Source: Escherichia phage teqhad
Sequence record: NC_054933.1
Reading direction: 5' to 3' (one strand)
Length of the DNA stretch: 64,000 nt
The notes beneath the pieces were generated by a model. The model saw only the letters and a list, made by a program, of their open reading frames with translations, ran no database searches and was not told the DNA's origin. Of the stretch, positions 21,878 through 63,337 are shown piece by piece (positions within the stretch are counted from its first letter, which is position 1; each line of letters starts with the position of its first letter). A program made the translations under genes and the position numbers.

Positions 21878-21881
21878 CAAT

Positions 21882-21899
21882 GGGGACCTTTCGGTCCCC
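21882..21899. terminator. bidirectional terminator between gene 54 and alt.-3-position ORF
   Basis: GGGGACC-TTTC-GGTCCCC flanked by T-runs. Confidence 0.7.
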
Positions 21900-21905
21900 A
21901 TATTT

Positions 21906-22196
21906 TTATTTACGGAATGAAATAAAAGCAGCAACTGAAGCAACTAAACTGTCTTCAATATAAACCTCAATTTTTACCGGAGCTTCTGACTCAAATTTAC
22001 CTGTTACTATACCCTGAAAAATACTTTCAGTCTGTTCTGGCTTTGAAAAATTTTCAGAAGGAAAAATTCCGAACTTTTTATCTGTTCCAAAAATTTTAAT
22101 AAATTCATCGTAAACTGCTTCATTAAAAGCATTATCAGCAGGAATAACGCCTTCAACTACAAGTTCTTGACCTAAAAAGCGCAAAGAAGATTTCAT
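21906..22196 (-). CDS. hypothetical protein (alt.-3 position)
   Basis: 96 aa ORF driven by GTTTAC-type early promoter at 22228-22257. Confidence 0.65.
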   Translation of the reverse strand: MKSSLRFLGQELVVEGVIPADNAFNEAVYDEFIKIFGTDKKFGIFPSENFSKPEQTESIFQGIVTGKFESEAPVKIEVYIEDSLVASVAAFISFRK

Positions 22197-22203
22197 TTTG
22201 TGT

Positions 22204-22257
22204 TCCTCATGTTATGCCAGTAAGACTACTATAACACAACACGAGGGACTTGTAAAC
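22204..22257 (-). repeat. 54-bp early promoter/leader repeat, copy A
   Basis: About 92 percent identical to 38018-38071 from promoter through RBS. Confidence 0.7.
22228..22257 (-). promoter_or_regulatory. early promoter GTTTAC-N18-TATAGT
   Basis: Minus strand GTTTACA, 18 nt, TATAGT; drives alt.-3-position ORF. Confidence 0.55.
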
Positions 22258-24314
22258 TACATTTTGAACTTTTTAGACATTCCGTTGATGTTAACCAAAG
22301 AAGCCAAGATTTGAGAAACTTCGTTTTCCTCTTCTTTTGATTCTTCTACAAGGAATTGATTAAATCCAGCCATTGGACGAACTTCACCAGTTTCCATTAG
22401 ATGGTCGCCATCATATACCGATTCCTCTAATTGTTCAGAAGGAGGAACGATTGTACCTTCTATTAGATACTTGTTATAAGCAGTTTCTTTCATAAAGTAC
22501 GTGCTCACTTTATTAATCTTCAGTAAAATTCCACGCGGTAGAATAACTTCAGCTTCTGATGGAAATCCTGATAAATGACCTGGAACGATAACTTTGATTC
22601 GCTCAGCTCCTTTAATTACCATACCCACGCTAGTTTCAGCATCTTCATTAGCATATGTAGAATGACTACCCATATGCATCAAATCTTCTGCATCAACGGA
22701 ACCTTCTCCTTCGCCAGAAAATACTGCGCCGGAATCATCTAGAGCCATATAGTTTTTACCGTGCTCACCGAAAATATTTGGTTTAAGCGATGTGGATACG
22801 AAGTTCTTGAAATAGAACATTTTGTTTTCAATATTATGACGCAAAGTTTTAAAGGTAACTTCTTGTCCACGGTAAAGTGTAGTTCCTGGAGGAAGAACTG
22901 AACCTTTAGCGAATGCAGAATCAAGCGTCTCGATGTGTTTAATAGCTCGTTCCATATATTCTTCACGGGTAGAATCTGGTTTACCCAAAAGGAACGAGTT
23001 CATTTCAACATATGAATCTGCACAATAATCTTCAATTACGTCAGATTCAGCCTGAGTTAATCCTTTTGGAGTTACTTCAGTACTTGCATATTCATATGCC
23101 TGAGCGGCAGATTCATTAATCAATTTATAAATGCCATTCATGACAAATTGAATAATAGCTGTCTTTTCATCTGGCGTAGCTTTAGAACCTTTAGCTAAAT
23201 CATTGACAATTTTCTTAATAACATCAAAACTATTAGAAATATTAATATCAGCAAGATCGCTTAAAATTTTATCAGTTTTATAATCAAAGAATTCTTTATT
23301 CTTTAAATATTCTTGAGAACCTTGATATGTTATATCGCTCTGCAGCTTGATAGATGGATCGCGTAAACGTGCATGGGCCAATGCAATATGATTTCGGAAG
23401 TTTTCTAGTTCATAATCGTTAGATTTAAAACGAGAAGCACTTCTCATACCACCGATAGCTCCTTTGCTAAAGTTTGAACCAATCTGAATAACGCCAGAGT
23501 TCATCGGACCTTCTGCTTTATATACCGGAACTTTAGATTCAAACTCTTGATATTTCTTAGCAGCGAAGCTATCACCCTGAAGTGAAGCATCAACAGTAGA
23601 ATATTGAGCTTGTGCTGCTAATCGACGACTAATTTTAGTTTTCTGAATAACAGCTTGATCCGTGCGCTTATCATTTTCTAAAGCAATAGAAGCAGCAACA
23701 GCGACAGCTTTAGGAACAGCATTACCTGTTTTAACGTCTACATAAACATCACCAACCTTTGATTCAACTTTTGTGAATAACTCAGTTGAAATAGGAGGTA
23801 CACCTGGAATGTCTTCTAAATTGGCATTTTTACGGTAAACCATAATATATGCATATTTCTTATCATAGTCCCAGATTTCCTTTAAAAGAACATATCGACC
23901 TGCTCCTTTAGTACGTACTAAACGGTCAGCAATAACTTGCATTTGACGAGCTGCGCCATTTGTTTTACTTTTTAGTACGCGGAATAGGCATGCGTCGATT
24001 TTATACTGTTTCATTGTTTGAAGAGCAGTATCAAAAACAGCATTAATGACGCCAATTGGATTTCCACCCAAGTTTCTAAGCTTGACTAACGATAATTTCT
24101 CGTTGACACCTATCATTACGATATGCATCATTTTGTCGCCTGGCTTAACGTTTTTATTTGTATCACCGCCAGAGGTGTATGTACAAAATCTAAATCCAGG
24201 AAGAACGCTTTCTTCACCGGCTTGAATAGCAAAAATTTGTGGTATTTTATGCTTAGGATTTAAGTTAACAACCGGCGCCGAAGCGCCGTCAAATAATTCT
24301 GTAATAAGTTCCAT
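22257..24314 (-). CDS. Alt-like ADP-ribosyltransferase paralog (alt.-2 position)
   Basis: 685 aa; N-terminus MELITELFD..NLNPK.KIPQIF shared with Alt; C-terminal R (LYRGQ), STS (FVSTSL) and E (SEAEVILPRG) ART-type motifs. Confidence 0.8.
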   Translation of the reverse strand: MELITELFDGASAPVVNLNPKHKIPQIFAIQAGEESVLPGFRFCTYTSGGDTNKNVKPGDKMMHIVMIGVNEKLSLVKLRNLGGNPIGVINAVFDTALQTMKQYKIDACLFRVLKSKTNGAARQMQVIADRLVRTKGAGRYVLLKEIWDYDKKYAYIMVYRKNANLEDIPGVPPISTELFTKVESKVGDVYVDVKTGNAVPKAVAVAASIALENDKRTDQAVIQKTKISRRLAAQAQYSTVDASLQGDSFAAKKYQEFESKVPVYKAEGPMNSGVIQIGSNFSKGAIGGMRSASRFKSNDYELENFRNHIALAHARLRDPSIKLQSDITYQGSQEYLKNKEFFDYKTDKILSDLADINISNSFDVIKKIVNDLAKGSKATPDEKTAIIQFVMNGIYKLINESAAQAYEYASTEVTPKGLTQAESDVIEDYCADSYVEMNSFLLGKPDSTREEYMERAIKHIETLDSAFAKGSVLPPGTTLYRGQEVTFKTLRHNIENKMFYFKNFVSTSLKPNIFGEHGKNYMALDDSGAVFSGEGEGSVDAEDLMHMGSHSTYANEDAETSVGMVIKGAERIKVIVPGHLSGFPSEAEVILPRGILLKINKVSTYFMKETAYNKYLIEGTIVPPSEQLEESVYDGDHLMETGEVRPMAGFNQFLVEESKEEENEVSQILASLVNINGMSKKFKM

Positions 24315-24317
24315 GAT

Positions 24318-26411
24318 TTATCCTTGAACGAACTTGTAAGGCATGTTTGTAATATCTATGCAAGACGCAATAATTCCAAGAGATGATTCTACTTTCTGTT
24401 TAACGTTTGATGAAACAAATGATGCAAAGTCAACTCTGTCTTCTATTTCAATATCACCTGTCATTGCAACCAATTCACCAGTTTCCATTAAATGGTCTCC
24501 ATCATAGATTACCGATTCGGTGAGCTCTTCCGTGGTCATAACTTCAGCTTGAATGAGTTTTGTATTATTAGATGTTGTTCCGTCATTATTAGAAGCATCA
24601 GTTATTTTATTAACTTTGACCATCAATCCACGCGGTAGAATAACTTCAGCTTCTGTTGCTATTCCGAGACTTCCTGGATATACAACATTAACTTTATGAG
24701 CTCCATCAATTGCCCATCCTATTTGAACTTTAACGTATTCAGGATTTTCTTTATACGCTCTTATTTCGTTTGGATTAATAGTTATTCCTTCTTCATTTTT
24801 ATCAACTGTTAATTCATTGCGAGCTTCTGGTTCTAAAAGACCAATACCAGCATGTGTAATTCCAAAACGTCCAAAAATGATAGGAGTTAAAGAAGTAGAT
24901 ACAAAATTTCTGAAGTAGAACACTTTATTTTTAACTAGTGCTTCGTATATAGGAGCAGTCATACTTTGAGCACGATAAACTGTAATGCCTTCTGGTATAC
25001 GGTCACCATTTTCAAAAGCTGAATCTAAGTTATTTATAGCAGATTCAATTTCTTTTTCACTCATTACATCATATCGTTCTGGATTGTAACGACCTAAAAG
25101 AAGATTATTAATGTCAGTATATCCTGAACCACAATATTCTCTAATACCTCTCTTTTGTGATGGAGTATATTTAGAACCATCACGAGCGATTGTAATATCA
25201 ATCATAGGACCAGCTCCTACGCCAGAGAAACTGTATATCATTCGTTTGAGGAATTTAGTTTTTGCTGCGTTCCAGGAATTTTTAGTTATTTCTTCCCAGA
25301 CTTCATCTGGTTGTCCTTTACGATTTTTATTATGATTAGCAAGCCATTTATCTTTATAATCTTCAAAGAATTGATTTACAGCTGCTGCGTATTTCTCTAA
25401 ACATTTTATTGAAGTAGTTGGTTCATTTTTAATTGCATTAAAAATTACTTCTTTAATTTTTTCTGAAACTTCACCGACTTGACTCATTGGAAAGAATTTA
25501 TAATCATAGTGAAGTTCATCTGCCGTTCCTTCAGCAATAATTTTTGCTGCCTTTGTTTTAGAAGCTAATGAATTAATTCCAATTTTCATTTCTTCTGCTT
25601 CGGGAATTAAAGGTGCAGTAGCTGGTTTATTAAAATTAGCTGCTGTAGATTCATACTTCTGGAATAATTCACTTTCAAATCTAGAAGATTCCAATGACTG
25701 GCTTTGTGCAATTGCTCTACGGGAAATTTTAACTTTAACGATTACAGCTTGGTCAGAACGTTTATCATTTTCTTGTGCAATAGATGCTGCAATTGCCTCA
25801 TTTTTGGTTACTTGGGCTCCAGTATCTTTATTGATATAAACATCACCGACTTTCGATTCAACTTTAGTAAAGAGCTCGGTACTAATTTCCGGAACTCCTG
25901 GAATGTCTTCTAGTGATACATTTTTACGATGTATAAGAATATATGCATACTTTTTATCGTAATCCCAGAGTTCCTTAAGAAGGACGTATCTGCCACCTGA
26001 ACGACTACGGATAAGTCTATCAGCAATAACTTGAATTTGTCGAGCTTGACCAGCGGTTTTAGACTTAAGAATACGAAGCATACAAGCATCAATTTTATAT
26101 TGACGCATTGTTTGCATTGCAACAGTAAAAACTGAATTGATATAATTAATTGGGCTTGGACCAAGACCTTTTAATTTAGCAATTGAACCTTTAGCAGTTA
26201 ATGTAAAAGGAACGATATGCATCATTTTATCGCCCATTTTTAAATCGCGATTAGTATCACCTCCAGATGTATACGTGCATAAACGAAAGCCTGGTTGTTC
26301 AATTGCATCATCAACATGAACTGAAAAAATTTGTGGTATTTTCTTCTTTGGATTTAAGTTTGTAATCGGAAGAGTAGTATCTTCGTCAAATAATTCTGTA
26401 ATGAGTTCCAT
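24318..26411 (-). CDS. alt: Alt, head-packaged ADP-ribosyltransferase
   Basis: about 697 aa from second ATG (GAGGA upstream); R (VYRAQ), STS, E (TEAEVILPRG) motifs; late promoter on minus strand at 26435-26442. Confidence 0.88.
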   Translation of the reverse strand: MELITELFDEDTTLPITNLNPKKKIPQIFSVHVDDAIEQPGFRLCTYTSGGDTNRDLKMGDKMMHIVPFTLTAKGSIAKLKGLGPSPINYINSVFTVAMQTMRQYKIDACMLRILKSKTAGQARQIQVIADRLIRSRSGGRYVLLKELWDYDKKYAYILIHRKNVSLEDIPGVPEISTELFTKVESKVGDVYINKDTGAQVTKNEAIAASIAQENDKRSDQAVIVKVKISRRAIAQSQSLESSRFESELFQKYESTAANFNKPATAPLIPEAEEMKIGINSLASKTKAAKIIAEGTADELHYDYKFFPMSQVGEVSEKIKEVIFNAIKNEPTTSIKCLEKYAAAVNQFFEDYKDKWLANHNKNRKGQPDEVWEEITKNSWNAAKTKFLKRMIYSFSGVGAGPMIDITIARDGSKYTPSQKRGIREYCGSGYTDINNLLLGRYNPERYDVMSEKEIESAINNLDSAFENGDRIPEGITVYRAQSMTAPIYEALVKNKVFYFRNFVSTSLTPIIFGRFGITHAGIGLLEPEARNELTVDKNEEGITINPNEIRAYKENPEYVKVQIGWAIDGAHKVNVVYPGSLGIATEAEVILPRGLMVKVNKITDASNNDGTTSNNTKLIQAEVMTTEELTESVIYDGDHLMETGELVAMTGDIEIEDRVDFASFVSSNVKQKVESSLGIIASCIDITNMPYKFVQG

Positions 26412-30836: not shown

Positions 30837-31169
30837 TTATTTTACTACTTTCCAATGCTGCATGTCAAGTTTACCAACTTTTTTCATCTTCTCAATTAAG
30901 CGTTCGGCACGTTGGCGAGCTGTAACATAATGCCATTCGCCTAATTCATTTTGTTCAATTTTTCCAACGATTACTGTATTCAATTCATAAATCCAACCAG
31001 TAAAGAAATTATGAACTTGAATTGTAAAGGTGAAATCTGTTCCCATACCTTCTGTTGTTTCTACTTCAATAATATCACCTTCAACTGCCATTAAGAACCA
31101 CATAGTTTCATCATATTTACCATTGAAGCATTTAGTTTTAACTGCAGCGTTCAGATTAATCGTTTTCAT
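30837..31169 (-). CDS. hypothetical protein
   Basis: 110 aa ORF with GTTTACA-N17-TAGTAT early promoter upstream. Confidence 0.6.
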   Translation of the reverse strand: MKTINLNAAVKTKCFNGKYDETMWFLMAVEGDIIEVETTEGMGTDFTFTIQVHNFFTGWIYELNTVIVGKIEQNELGEWHYVTARQRAERLIEKMKKVGKLDMQHWKVVK

Positions 31170-31196
31170 TTTATTCTCCTTTGTTTGTGTAAGATA

Positions 31197-31226
31197 ATAC
31201 TATCACAAAGGAACCATACTGTAAAC
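31197..31226 (-). promoter_or_regulatory. early promoter GTTTACA-N17-TAGTAT
   Basis: Follows terminator 31257-31274 on minus strand. Confidence 0.55.
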
Positions 31227-31256
31227 AACTTTGTGCAATCTTTGGAAAATAAAAAA

Positions 31257-31274
31257 GGACTCCCGAAGGAGTCC
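31257..31274 (-). terminator. rho-independent terminator downstream of 30.9-position ORF
   Basis: Minus strand GGACUCC-UUCG-GGAGUCC followed by U6. Confidence 0.7.
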
Positions 31275-31279
31275 TCAAC

Positions 31280-31456
31280 TTATGCTTTCTGCTTACCAAA
31301 ACGAGAAGCATCATCTCGAAGAACCGCACGTGCTCGGCGCATGATCTTCTCAACAGTTTGATTGATACGAGAGTTCGACCCACGCTTGTAGCCAGCGCGT
31401 TTAGAATCACCAACTTTCTTTTCAACTGCTTTCTTTGCTTTAACTTGTTTTGCCAT
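31280..31456 (-). CDS. small basic protein (30.9 position)
   Basis: 58 aa from ATG (MAKQVKAKKAVEKK...); ORF-track version starts 14 codons upstream. Confidence 0.5.
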   Translation of the reverse strand: MAKQVKAKKAVEKKVGDSKRAGYKRGSNSRINQTVEKIMRRARAVLRDDASRFGKQKA

Positions 31457-37166: not shown

Positions 37167-37516
37167 TTAGAAAGGTCCTGGATGTCTTCTGCGAACTTGT
37201 TGAAGGAGTTGTTGATTTGTTTTTCAACCAATCCTGGCTTATGAGCCACCACATCCGCCTTCTTTGCGTCTTTGCGCAGCTTTTCATTTTCACGCTCAAT
37301 TGCAGCAATTGATTCACGATTTTTATTATTCATTGCATCAATATAATTATATTGATTTTTTAAATCATTTAATGCTAAGGCGTTTTCATTGGCCGTTTTT
37401 GTAATTTCTACAACAGACGTTTCTAATCTTTCAATTTTATTTTTTAAAATTAAAGAAGTTCCGCCCAATGCAATTACAATTAATAACAAGCCTGCTGTCG
37501 TATTACTTAATTGCAT
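37163..37516 (-). CDS. N-terminal TM plus coiled-coil protein, probable i-spanin
   Basis: 117 aa; hydrophobic helix GLLLIVIALGGTSLIL followed by charged helical region. Confidence 0.7.
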   Translation of the reverse strand: MQLSNTTAGLLLIVIALGGTSLILKNKIERLETSVVEITKTANENALALNDLKNQYNYIDAMNNKNRESIAAIERENEKLRKDAKKADVVAHKPGLVEKQINNSFNKFAEDIQDLSK

Positions 37517-38013
37517 AAAGTTTTAATAACCTCTATAATATCGTCTTGAGAAAGACCGTTAATTAAAATATGATGTTCCGCCGGAGATTTAGAAATTTTA
37601 AAGCATGCCGCAACATCTTCTGCCATATCTGATGCGCTACGATTTGGATTACTAATTCCAAGACGATGTTTTCCCGTTAAAGGATTAACGATAATATAGC
37701 ATTTACAGCTATTGATATGAACATTAGGTTGAGTCTGATTAATGAACACTTCACAATCATACTTAGCGAGTTGATTTTCTAAAAAGACTTTCATCTCCTC
37801 AACCGCATCAGGAAGCATATCACGGGCTTGCTCAAGACGACGATTTCGATATTCTTTAATGGTCGTTTTCCGCTTGACTTGCTTAGCTAAATCTTTCTTA
37901 AGATCGGTGATATATCCAACTCGACGATTTCCTTTGAATACAGAAATCCCATCTGTAGTATCACCGTATGCTTCAACGACCATTTCAGTAGTAATAAGCT
38001 GTAAATCCATCAT
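37507..38013 (-). CDS. alc: Alc, inhibitor of host transcription on cytosine-containing DNA
   Basis: 168 aa, MMDLQLITTEMVVEAYGDTTDG... Confidence 0.88.
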   Translation of the reverse strand: MMDLQLITTEMVVEAYGDTTDGISVFKGNRRVGYITDLKKDLAKQVKRKTTIKEYRNRRLEQARDMLPDAVEEMKVFLENQLAKYDCEVFINQTQPNVHINSCKCYIIVNPLTGKHRLGISNPNRSASDMAEDVAACFKISKSPAEHHILINGLSQDDIIEVIKTLCN

Positions 38014-38017
38014 AAAG

Positions 38018-38071
38018 TCCTCATGTTATGTCAGTAAGACTACTGTAACACAACATGAGGGACTTGTAAAC
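38018..38071 (-). repeat. 54-bp early promoter/leader repeat, copy B
   Basis: About 92 percent identical to 22204-22257. Confidence 0.7.
38042..38071 (-). promoter_or_regulatory. early promoter for alc
   Basis: Minus strand GTTTACA, 18 nt, TACAGT; near-identical copy of 22204-22257. Confidence 0.55.
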
Positions 38072-38074
38072 AGC

Positions 38075-39662
<1,588 letters not shown>

Positions 39663-46578: not shown

Positions 46579-46806
46579 TTATTGTTCAATCAGTCCCATG
46601 TAAAATTCTGCGTCTTCAGAATCCATGCCATCGCAATATTCATTAGCCATAAAGCGGGTGAGGTCTTCAAGAGGACCTTCAATAACGATTTGAATACTCC
46701 AAAACTTAGAATCTTGCACGCTTGTAATACTAAGTTCAGGATAACGATTACGAATAATTTCTTCAATATATTCAAAATCAACGATGTCAATATCAACTTT
46801 AGCCAT
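46579..46806 (-). CDS. hypothetical protein (frd.x cluster)
   Basis: 75 aa from ATG with AGAGGA upstream; ORF-track start at 46827 lacks an RBS. Confidence 0.55.
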
Positions 46807-46845
46807 ATTGTTTTCCTCTTTAATCATCAGCAGTATTGCCGATAG

Positions 46846-46879
46846 TTGTATAGTACCACAGTCCTTGTGGTATGTAAAC
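46846..46879 (-). promoter_or_regulatory. early promoter within PeSL-like cassette
   Basis: Minus strand GGTTTACA ... TGGTACTAT, preceded by terminator 46909-46927. Confidence 0.55.
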
Positions 46880-46908
46880 CGTTTTGTGAAAAAATTTTTA
46901 AAATAAAA

Positions 46909-46927
46909 AAGGGGACCCTAGAGGTCC
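46909..46927 (-). terminator. terminator downstream of gene 32
   Basis: GGGGACC-CTAGA-GGTCCCC with A/T runs. Confidence 0.7.
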
Positions 46928-62579: not shown

Positions 62580-63215
62580 TCACAGTTCAGATGCTACAGT
62601 GATTACTGCTTCAATGTTTTCTGCTGAGCGTTTAATGTCAAGATACACATTACCGTTTTTAGCGATTTTACATGACATTCCGATATCAGTAAATTTCTGA
62701 ATATGATGTTCCATCATTTTGTATCCAAAAATTCGCATATTTCCATTGTTGTTAATTTCAAAATTGCGAATTCCATGTGTACGTTTTTCTAAAATGGCAA
62801 GATAATTACTACGATAAGTTTCAACCTTTTTAAGAACAAATCCATTTTCATCTAGCAGTTTTAACATGAGGTCTTTATCTTCTTCCATATCAGAAGTAAT
62901 CTCACGAGCTTTACGAGTTGCTCGTTTTTTCAGAAGTTCTGGAGCATTTTCCTGTGCATATAAAGTTGCTGCATTTGAAATAATATCTTGTGCTTCACCC
63001 GTGATGATTAATCCATCACCTGATTTCTCTACCAGGCCTTTTTTAATTAATACCCCAATATTACTATTAACTACTGCGTTACCTAAATCTGGATGCACCT
63101 CACGAACTTCTGCAGCTGTAATGAAATCTTTCTTAGCAATGGTAATTAAAATCGCAGCGGTTTTTTCATTCAGAACATCGTTAGAAGCTTTGATGATGTA
63201 AGTTACTTTAGACAT
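62580..63215 (-). CDS. motA: middle-transcription activator MotA
   Basis: 211 aa, MSKVTYIIKASNDVLNEKTAAILITIAKKDF... Confidence 0.93.
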   Translation of the reverse strand: MSKVTYIIKASNDVLNEKTAAILITIAKKDFITAAEVREVHPDLGNAVVNSNIGVLIKKGLVEKSGDGLIITGEAQDIISNAATLYAQENAPELLKKRATRKAREITSDMEEDKDLMLKLLDENGFVLKKVETYRSNYLAILEKRTHGIRNFEINNNGNMRIFGYKMMEHHIQKFTDIGMSCKIAKNGNVYLDIKRSAENIEAVITVASEL

Positions 63216-63255
63216 TTTCTAATCTCCGTAATTCTGTATCAGTAGTTGATAGTTG

Positions 63256-63286
63256 TATAGTACCACAGTATGCTTTGGTTGTAAAC
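63256..63286 (-). promoter_or_regulatory. early promoter for motA within PeSL-like cassette
   Basis: Minus strand GGTTTACA ... TGGTACTAT, preceded by terminator 63318-63337. Confidence 0.55.
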
Positions 63287-63317
63287 CGTTTTGTGAAAAA
63301 ATTTTTGAAATAAAAAA

Positions 63318-63337
63318 GGGAGAGCCTCGGCTCTCCC
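63318..63337 (-). terminator. terminator upstream of motA early promoter
   Basis: GGGAGAGC-CUCG-GCUCUCCC with flanking A/T runs. Confidence 0.65.

Follow-up and report, generated by a model that had tools for sequence, protein, structure and literature searches.

The DNA analyzed here is a 64-kb stretch (64,000 nucleotides, referred to throughout as the window) of a Tequatrovirus, a T4-like phage; 1-kb pieces taken around the two loci described below match approximately 500 phage records at 95–100% identity. Two intergenic regions of the minus strand carry copies of the same 54-nt cassette, one ahead of alc (copy B) and the other ahead of alt.-3 (copy A; Table 1). Read on the minus strand (38071..38018 versus 22257..22204), the copies are identical at 51 of 54 bases without gaps. 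The original prediction of a duplicated promoter cassette before these two genes was therefore right about both the repeat and the gene assignments, and its figure of about 92 percent identity was slightly low, the actual value being 94%. The two copies are the sole matches within the window at up to three mismatches, and a cassette match arose in none of 100 dinucleotide-preserving shuffles, with none expected by chance.

The shared stretch starts at the G of GTTTACA and ends at GAGGA, which contains the Shine-Dalgarno (SD) sequence; the flanks are unrelated, and the final 4–8 nt ahead of the ATG are unlike between the copies. In both cases the SD and start codon of the downstream gene stand at the 3' end and the stop codon of the upstream gene lies just 5', with copy B coming directly after the stop of rnlA, and copy A sharing its G at 22257 with the TAG stop of the alt paralogue. 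That paralogue belongs to a tandem pair of full-length alt-like ADP-ribosyltransferase genes (window 22257-26400, minus strand) forming direct repeats approximately 2094 nt apart; both genes are found in most relatives, and in T4 itself the second alt copy is reduced to the remnants alt.-1 and alt.-2. Each cassette comprises TTTACA, 17 nt and TAYAGT preceded by TGn, and is thus a T4-type sigma-70 early promoter with an extended -10 element.

Table 1. Coordinates of the cassettes, their parts and the neighboring genes in the window
Feature	Position	Strand	Remarks
Copy A, 54-nt cassette	22204..22257	minus	between alt paralogue and alt.-3
-35 hexamer TTTACA, copy A	22251..22256	minus
-10 hexamer TATAGT, copy A	22228..22233	minus	preceded by TGT
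Predicted start site, copy A	~22221	minus	standard sigma-70 geometry
5' arm of predicted hairpin, copy A	22227..22249	minus	RNA fold
3' arm of predicted hairpin, copy A	22202..22222	minus	RNA fold; SD GAGG at 22205..22208
alt.-3 homologue	21906..22196	minus	96 aa, function unknown; served by copy A
ATG of alt.-3	22194..22196	minus
Second alt-like ADP-ribosyltransferase gene	22257..24314	minus	full length; upstream of copy A
Copy B, 54-nt cassette	38018..38071	minus	GTTTACAAGTCCCTCATGTTGTGTTACAGTAGTCTTACTGACATAACATGAGGA; between rnlA and alc
-35 hexamer TTTACA, copy B	38065..38070	minus	G at 38071 completes GTTTACA
-10 hexamer TACAGT, copy B	38042..38047	minus	preceded by TGT
Predicted start site, copy B	~38035	minus	A, 7 nt past -10; standard sigma-70 geometry
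5' arm of predicted hairpin, copy B	38041..38065	minus	RNA fold; anti-SD CCCUC + AUGUUGUG + CAGUA
3' arm of predicted hairpin, copy B	38015..38036	minus	RNA fold; SD GAGG at 38019..38022; ends 1 nt before alc ATG
alc	37507..38013	minus	inhibitor of host transcription; served by copy B
First ATG of alc	38011..38013	minus
rnlA	38075..39235	minus	RNA ligase 1; upstream of copy B
Third cassette (candidate)	31181..31226	minus	arms UCCUUUGUG / CAAAGGA, unrelated sequence; upstream of gene 30.8 homologue; weaker evidence

An early promoter nested in a predicted hairpin

Each copy is predicted to fold, as RNA, into a hairpin with a stem of 20–22 bp and a GUCU tetraloop, with folding energies of -26.1 kcal/mol for alc and -23.0 kcal/mol for alt.-3 (z = -4.0 and -3.7). 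The 5' arm begins right after the -35 hexamer and fills the promoter spacer and most of the -10 element. A 9-bp inverted repeat spanning the SD had originally been described as part of the leader; the repeat exists and does reach the SD, although its stem is approximately 22 bp long, and only its 3' arm with the SD belongs to the leader, the 5' arm (CCTCRTGTTGTG) lying in the -35/-10 spacer upstream of the predicted start. In 300 shuffles of the spacer the observed hairpin energy was never matched. Scoring the shuffles instead by whether the SD paired to bases ahead of the start site gave no discrimination, because C/T-rich spacers pair weakly with GAGG in any case, and only the energies are informative. 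A search of Rfam returned no relevant match to the cassettes.

On the modeled geometry, any start usable by the nested promoter would fall 3' of the 5' arm. RNA from the cassette's own promoter would thus lack that arm, and only transcripts that enter from rnlA or the alt genes could therefore form the hairpin. RNA starting past the -10 element folds at -3.2 kcal/mol (alc) and -4.9 kcal/mol (alt.-3), with z of about -0.9 and -0.4, which is like shuffled sequence. The computed cost of opening the SD is 8.0 kcal/mol (alc) and 11.2 kcal/mol (alt.-3) in read-through RNA started 100 nt upstream, versus 1.4–2.1 kcal/mol in own-promoter RNA (3.1 kcal/mol for the earliest alt.-3 start tried).

Conservation, covariation and exchange between loci

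A blastn search with the 54-mer returned 498 records and 995 places, two per genome, all in Tequatrovirus and at 92% identity or more. The duplication is consequently old rather than recent, given that approximately 498 Tequatrovirus genomes have both copies, and a recent duplication event was ruled out by this genus-wide distribution. The neighbors are always rnlA and alc at one junction and an alt-like gene and alt.-3 at the other (in T4, T2, T6, PP01, pSs-1 and eight further genomes); in T4 the alt-like gene at the alt.-3 junction is the remnant alt.-2. At the two junctions, 493 of 496 and 403 of 499 records span at least 80% of the 1-kb regions, and the only variation nearby is the T4-type internal deletion of the alt paralogue, which does not end in the cassette. 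The expectation that the repeat would mark variable junctions in relatives thus largely fails within the genus, the neighboring genes being the same in every genome examined.

When 27 copies were compared, the 3' half, comprising the transcribed arm and the SD, was nearly invariant, and substitutions clustered in the 5' arm, the -10 element and the loop. Most changes in the 5' arm keep a wobble pair, replacing C by U where the partner is G, or A by G where it is U; one pair in Tequatrovirus is fully compensated (C27-G40 to U27-A40). The alc cassette of phage 4E10 has a 1-nt insertion (GTTTACAAGTTCCCTC) that gives a promoter spacer of 18 nt.

Homologues of Alc are present in many T4-like genera. 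An IMG/VR scan with a 14-mer of the cassette gave only chance matches and one with a 22-mer gave 8 loci; the spacers between rnlA and alc were taken from eight annotated phages and 42 IMG/VR loci, which yielded 37 distinct elements. Approximately 26 of the 37 keep the architecture in a different sequence, running from GTTTACA through an anti-SD arm, TGn/-10 and a loop to an SD arm, and this arrangement precedes alc in at least six other genera: Gelderlandvirus (arms UCUCCGUUU/AAACGGAGA), Karamvirus (UCUCCAUUUGG/CCAAAUGGAGA), Jiaodavirus (UCCUCAUCAG/CUGAUGAGGA), Bragavirus (CCCUCUCGUUUUU/AAAAAUGAGAGG), Dhakavirus and Winklervirus. Among 27 elements upstream of alc, drawn from many genera, GTTTACA and TGn/-10 are either invariant or conserved. 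Stems outside Tequatrovirus range from 13 to 22 bp, often with large loops. About a quarter of the alc promoters leave the SD unmasked; in three elements the hairpin around the -10 halts 2–5 nt short of it, and Mosigvirus-type elements have only a small hairpin within the spacer. What all alc promoters have in common is accordingly a hairpin that begins directly behind the -35, and SD masking itself is not universal.

Covariation between the arms was assessed in two ways. RNAalifold found no pairs in a MAFFT alignment of 27 elements, the register of the helix shifting by 1–3 nt between clades, and an alignment-free duplex test and an ungapped alignment of 11 sequences were used in its place. 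Across 26 distinct elements, cognate arms pair at -18.4 kcal/mol versus -10.5 kcal/mol for non-cognate arms, a difference equaled in 0 of 20,000 permutations. In the ungapped alignment 93% of cells are paired, versus 39–47% with the partner slid; four pairs show compensatory double changes, and the covariation score was reached in 0 of 500 shuffles. A covariance model built solely from the other genera found exactly three matches in the window, the two copies and a further one at 31181-31226. In Gaprivervirus phages resembling VR26 and VR20, an extra small Alc-like ORF stands between rnlA and alc, and upstream of it a -35-like GTGTACA lies in the loop of a G+C-rich hairpin (AAGGGGTGTACAAGCCCCTT).

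The two loci differ in their history outside the genus. Homologues of alt.-3 also occur in other genera, and in Gapriver-, Dhaka-, Mosig-, Marfa-, and Gelderlandvirus the promoter ahead of the gene has a small spacer hairpin only (e.g., CACCACAAGGAUGUGG) and leaves the SD unmasked. By this comparison the large hairpin is ancestral at alc and specific to Tequatrovirus at alt.-3, and the pattern points to replacement of the alt.-3 promoter by the alc cassette in the ancestor of Tequatrovirus; copying in the direction from alc to alt.-3 is indicated because alt.-3 of the other genera lacks the large hairpin. Such a replacement could have occurred by ectopic recombination (gene conversion), with the near-identity of the copies since upheld by constraint and probably by occasional further conversion.

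An exchange in the opposite direction is apparent in a Dhakavirus-like contig (IMG/VR 2706795356), in which the alc leader agrees with the alt.-3 leader over its final 32 nt, ATGAA included, versus 10 nt in sister phages. The sequences indicate an independent alt.-3 to alc conversion, with a crossover probably near the -10, and the hairpin is kept in the chimeric alc leader. Within Tequatrovirus, no fixed difference separates the paralogous cassettes of 12 genomes and the same polymorphisms segregate in both; the distance between paralogues is 2.33 within a genome versus 2.83 between genomes (permutation p = 0.018), which is suggestive of continuing conversion. Concerted evolution judged from the single polymorphic site at position 32 was not significant (8 of 13 genomes concordant, about 6 expected). 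Of the recent recombination footprint originally proposed, then, recombination is upheld by the different alt.-3 promoter of other genera and by the Dhakavirus-like exchange, and its recency is not, both copies being so widespread. The cassette may offer a clean natural case of a complete regulatory unit that has been copied, independently in two lineages, from one locus to another 15 kb away.

Proposed gating of translation and its alternatives

The reading that we favor, and regard as modestly probable, is that each copy is an early promoter nested in an SD-masking hairpin which ties translation of alc and alt.-3 to their own promoter, the alc cassette being the ancestral one. Polymerase starting at the cassette promoter would begin 3' of the loop, approximately 7 nt beyond the -10 element, and the resulting mRNA would carry the 3' arm only, with its SD open. 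RNA arriving from upstream would contain both arms, fold, and bury the SD. Translation of alc and alt.-3 would in this way be limited to the first minutes of infection, and later read-through RNA would be translationally silent. From the promoter geometry and the folds we infer the exact start of transcription, that the hairpin forms in vivo and that it affects translation. The suggestion that the duplicated leader is a post-transcriptional control element thus gains from structure, covariation and position, and it does not hold for the leader made from the own promoter, which lacks the 5' arm.

In T4, read-through into alc could originate at the nrdB-region middle promoters (at 138939 and 139878, before nrdB-denA-rnlA) via denA and rnlA, and read-through into alt.-3 from P30 (at 127234, before gene 30 and alt) via gene 30 and the alt genes (PMC2988021 Table 1). 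Neither the interval from rnlA to alc nor the one from the alt paralogue to alt.-3 contains a terminator-like site and, given the upstream T4 middle promoters, read-through is plausible. In the T4 time course, denA is classed as middle RNA and late protein, rnlA as early RNA and late protein, and alc as early for both; toward the other junction, alt is middle RNA and late protein, alt.-1 and alt.-2 are middle RNA, and alt.-3 is early for both (PMC9697503 supplements). The switch of temporal class at both junctions supports an early promoter active there, and the classes are consistent with silent read-through RNA. Besides the alc promoters that leave the SD unmasked and the stable antisense folds considered below, further observations count against masking as the function: the early-protein class of Alc and Alt.-3 is equally expected from an early promoter alone, alt.-3 manages without a mask in other genera, and a palindrome centered on the -10 in a 60-bp spacer tends to reach the SD anyway.

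The closest functional parallels are the T4 elements of the e, soc, 49, and I-TevI type, together with those of related homing-endonuclease genes such as mobE of Aeh1, in which masking of the ribosome-binding site is transcript-specific (PMC3014915). As modeled, the likeness lies in a hairpin that hides the SD in RNA from a distal promoter, and in a proximal promoter whose RNA lacks the 5' strand and is translated. In those elements the nested promoter is a gp55 late promoter (TATAAATA) and translation is delayed to late infection, whereas the nested promoter here is a sigma-70 early one and the predicted effect is reversed, in that translation would be restricted to early infection. For e and I-TevI the effect has been shown by experiment, while the present cassettes are known from sequence and predicted folds. 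We thus infer by analogy that the cassette works as these elements do, outside the set so far described. The 2010 review of T4 post-transcriptional control treats late-promoter cases only (PMC3014915); older T4 literature may already note the alc hairpin.

By anatomy and by the evidence of recombination, the cassette is a PeSL, one of the promoter-early stem-loop cassettes of T4-type phages (Arbiol et al., 2010, PMC2839356; Comeau et al., 2014, PMC4122927). PeSLs are likewise intergenic and consist of an early promoter of the sigma-70-like type, a stem-loop that overlaps the -35 and -10 boxes or sits between them, and the downstream gene's SD and start codon; they occur in repeated copies per genome and exchange by recombination over approximately 50 bp. 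The T4/PST consensus TTTACW-N17-TAYWAT fits copies A and B. They differ in that the T4/PST PeSLs are drawn with the stem-loop upstream of the promoter, whereas the stem here wraps the -10 and the start site, ends on the SD and is followed by no U tract. The neighbors of the present cassettes are also conserved and in part essential genes instead of variable ORFans, and the cassettes do not lie in a hyperplastic location. Because the flanking genes are conserved, recombination between copies is seen as conversion and not as deletion or a mini-circle.

The published role of the PeSL stem-loop is that of a terminator or attenuator, and neither translation nor ribosomes are mentioned in PMC2839356 and PMC4122927. 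Applied to the present cassettes, this would mean that the hairpin ends or attenuates transcription, or marks or stabilizes the 3' ends of rnlA and alt RNA, with the nested promoter restarting synthesis and the SD included incidentally. The fit of the anatomy speaks for it, as do the RB49 PeSL stem-loop, which reduced reporter expression as strongly as rrnB T1 (PMC2839356), hairpins in the same position that exclude the SD in some genera, and the change of T4 temporal class at both junctions. The hairpins resemble intrinsic terminators in being stable and intergenic, but neither the two copies nor the orthologous hairpins are followed by a U tract, in contrast to the terminators of the window at 21880-21901 and 31255-31276; the tails are A-rich, with a mean of 1.8 T in the 8 nt after the stems (copy A continues with AACACAAAAUG). 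Neither copy was called terminator-like, whereas real terminators nearby were, and what most genera preserve is the arm that pairs with the SD. An intrinsic terminator was rejected for lack of the U tract, and the wider explanation in terms of termination, attenuation or 3'-end protection appears unlikely.

A second explanation, which we consider quite improbable, is that the approximately 22-bp stem in read-through RNA is cut by RNase III or another endonuclease and so separates the cistrons, or that it shields the upstream mRNA from 3' exonucleases. The Tequatrovirus stem has about two helical turns and small bulges, which is the size of a typical RNase III substrate. Stem length is not conserved, however, given the shorter stems and large loops of other genera; no Rfam family matches, and RNase III is not mentioned in a review of T4 post-transcriptional control.

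The palindrome could instead act in the DNA, as a cruciform or protein site around the -10 that modulates or shuts off the promoter, or as a recombination hotspot, the RNA hairpin being a by-product. The fold of the antisense strand is as stable as that of the sense strand across genera (p = 0.98), so that a structure in the DNA or on the other strand is conceivable outside Tequatrovirus; the cassettes have clearly recombined with each other, and protein binding to PeSL stem-loops has been speculated upon by the authors who described them. Against this, a sequence-specific binding site is disfavored by arms that vary freely between genera and yet remain complementary. Within Tequatrovirus, moreover, several pairs are G.U, which favors the sense RNA (-23 to -26 kcal/mol, versus -15 to -22 kcal/mol for the antisense) and in DNA would correspond to mismatches. 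A role at the DNA level is, on balance, very unlikely.

That the repeat has no separate function, being two strong early promoters of the T4 extended consensus (UP element, -35, TGn and -10; PMC2988021) or the neutral remnant of a duplication, is hardly credible even though another promoter pair in the window is 88% identical over 73 nt, since identity spans the full spacer and the transcribed 3' arm beyond the consensus boxes, the 3' half is nearly invariant with mostly pairing-preserving changes in the 5' half, and neither the spacer shuffles nor the covariation across genera would be expected of it. A RegB site was also considered and rejected: the SD is of the T4 type GAGG, not GGAG.

If the gating model is correct, the promoter of origin decides whether an mRNA is translated in the early direction too, which would extend a classic T4 principle. 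It would account for the strictly early behavior of Alc, which is a potent transcription terminator, and of Alt.-3, although their genes end long middle and late units, and would recast one class of PeSL stem-loops as masks of translation instead of terminators. For engineering of T4-like phages, or where RNA-seq serves as a proxy for protein, it would mean that read-through RNA over alc and alt.-3 may be silent.

A third cassette and other elements of the window

A true terminator at 31255-31276 immediately precedes the third match of the covariance model, and a gene 30.8 homologue (30837..31169) lies downstream. This match consists of an early promoter with an anti-SD arm in the spacer and is kept in 13 Tequatrovirus genomes; its folding energy of -12.5 kcal/mol is reached by some spacer shuffles. 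A broader proposal, which we advance tentatively as plausible without judging it probable, is that an anti-SD arm in the spacer of a sigma-70 early promoter is a general and conserved device of Tevenvirinae that licenses translation only from the promoter's own start and so restricts proteins such as Alc to the opening minutes of infection, and that such cassettes move between loci by short-homology gene conversion with their program of transcription and translation included; the window would then hold at least three (alc, alt.-3, and 30.8). Close to the third cassette, Rfam gave a sub-threshold match to Atu_C8 (31241-31324, minus strand; 31.4 bits against a gathering threshold of 50), which overlaps the terminator hairpin and is most likely due to chance.

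The second repeated pair of early promoters, at 46841-46913 and 63248-63320 on the minus strand (73 nt, 88% identical), precedes an 82-aa ORF (46579..46827) and a 211-aa ORF of MotA size (62580..63215). It contains a T-run tail, the UP-like AAAAATTTTTTCACAAAAC, GGTTTACA and the -10 element GGTACTATAC, and the SD is unmasked in both copies; a small spacer hairpin in the 46.8k copy is degraded in the 63.2k copy. A short hairpin, CACCACAAGGAnGUGG or a variant of it, recurs in the -35/-10 spacer of early promoters of Dhaka-, Marfa-, Mosig-, and Gelderlandvirus (alt.-3/alc), and the window promoter at 46878 resembles this type. Between the convergent genes alt.-3 and 54, finally, lies a terminator-like bidirectional hairpin (21880-21901; ATGGGGACC-TTTC-GGTCCCCAT) with a T-rich tail on the plus strand only.
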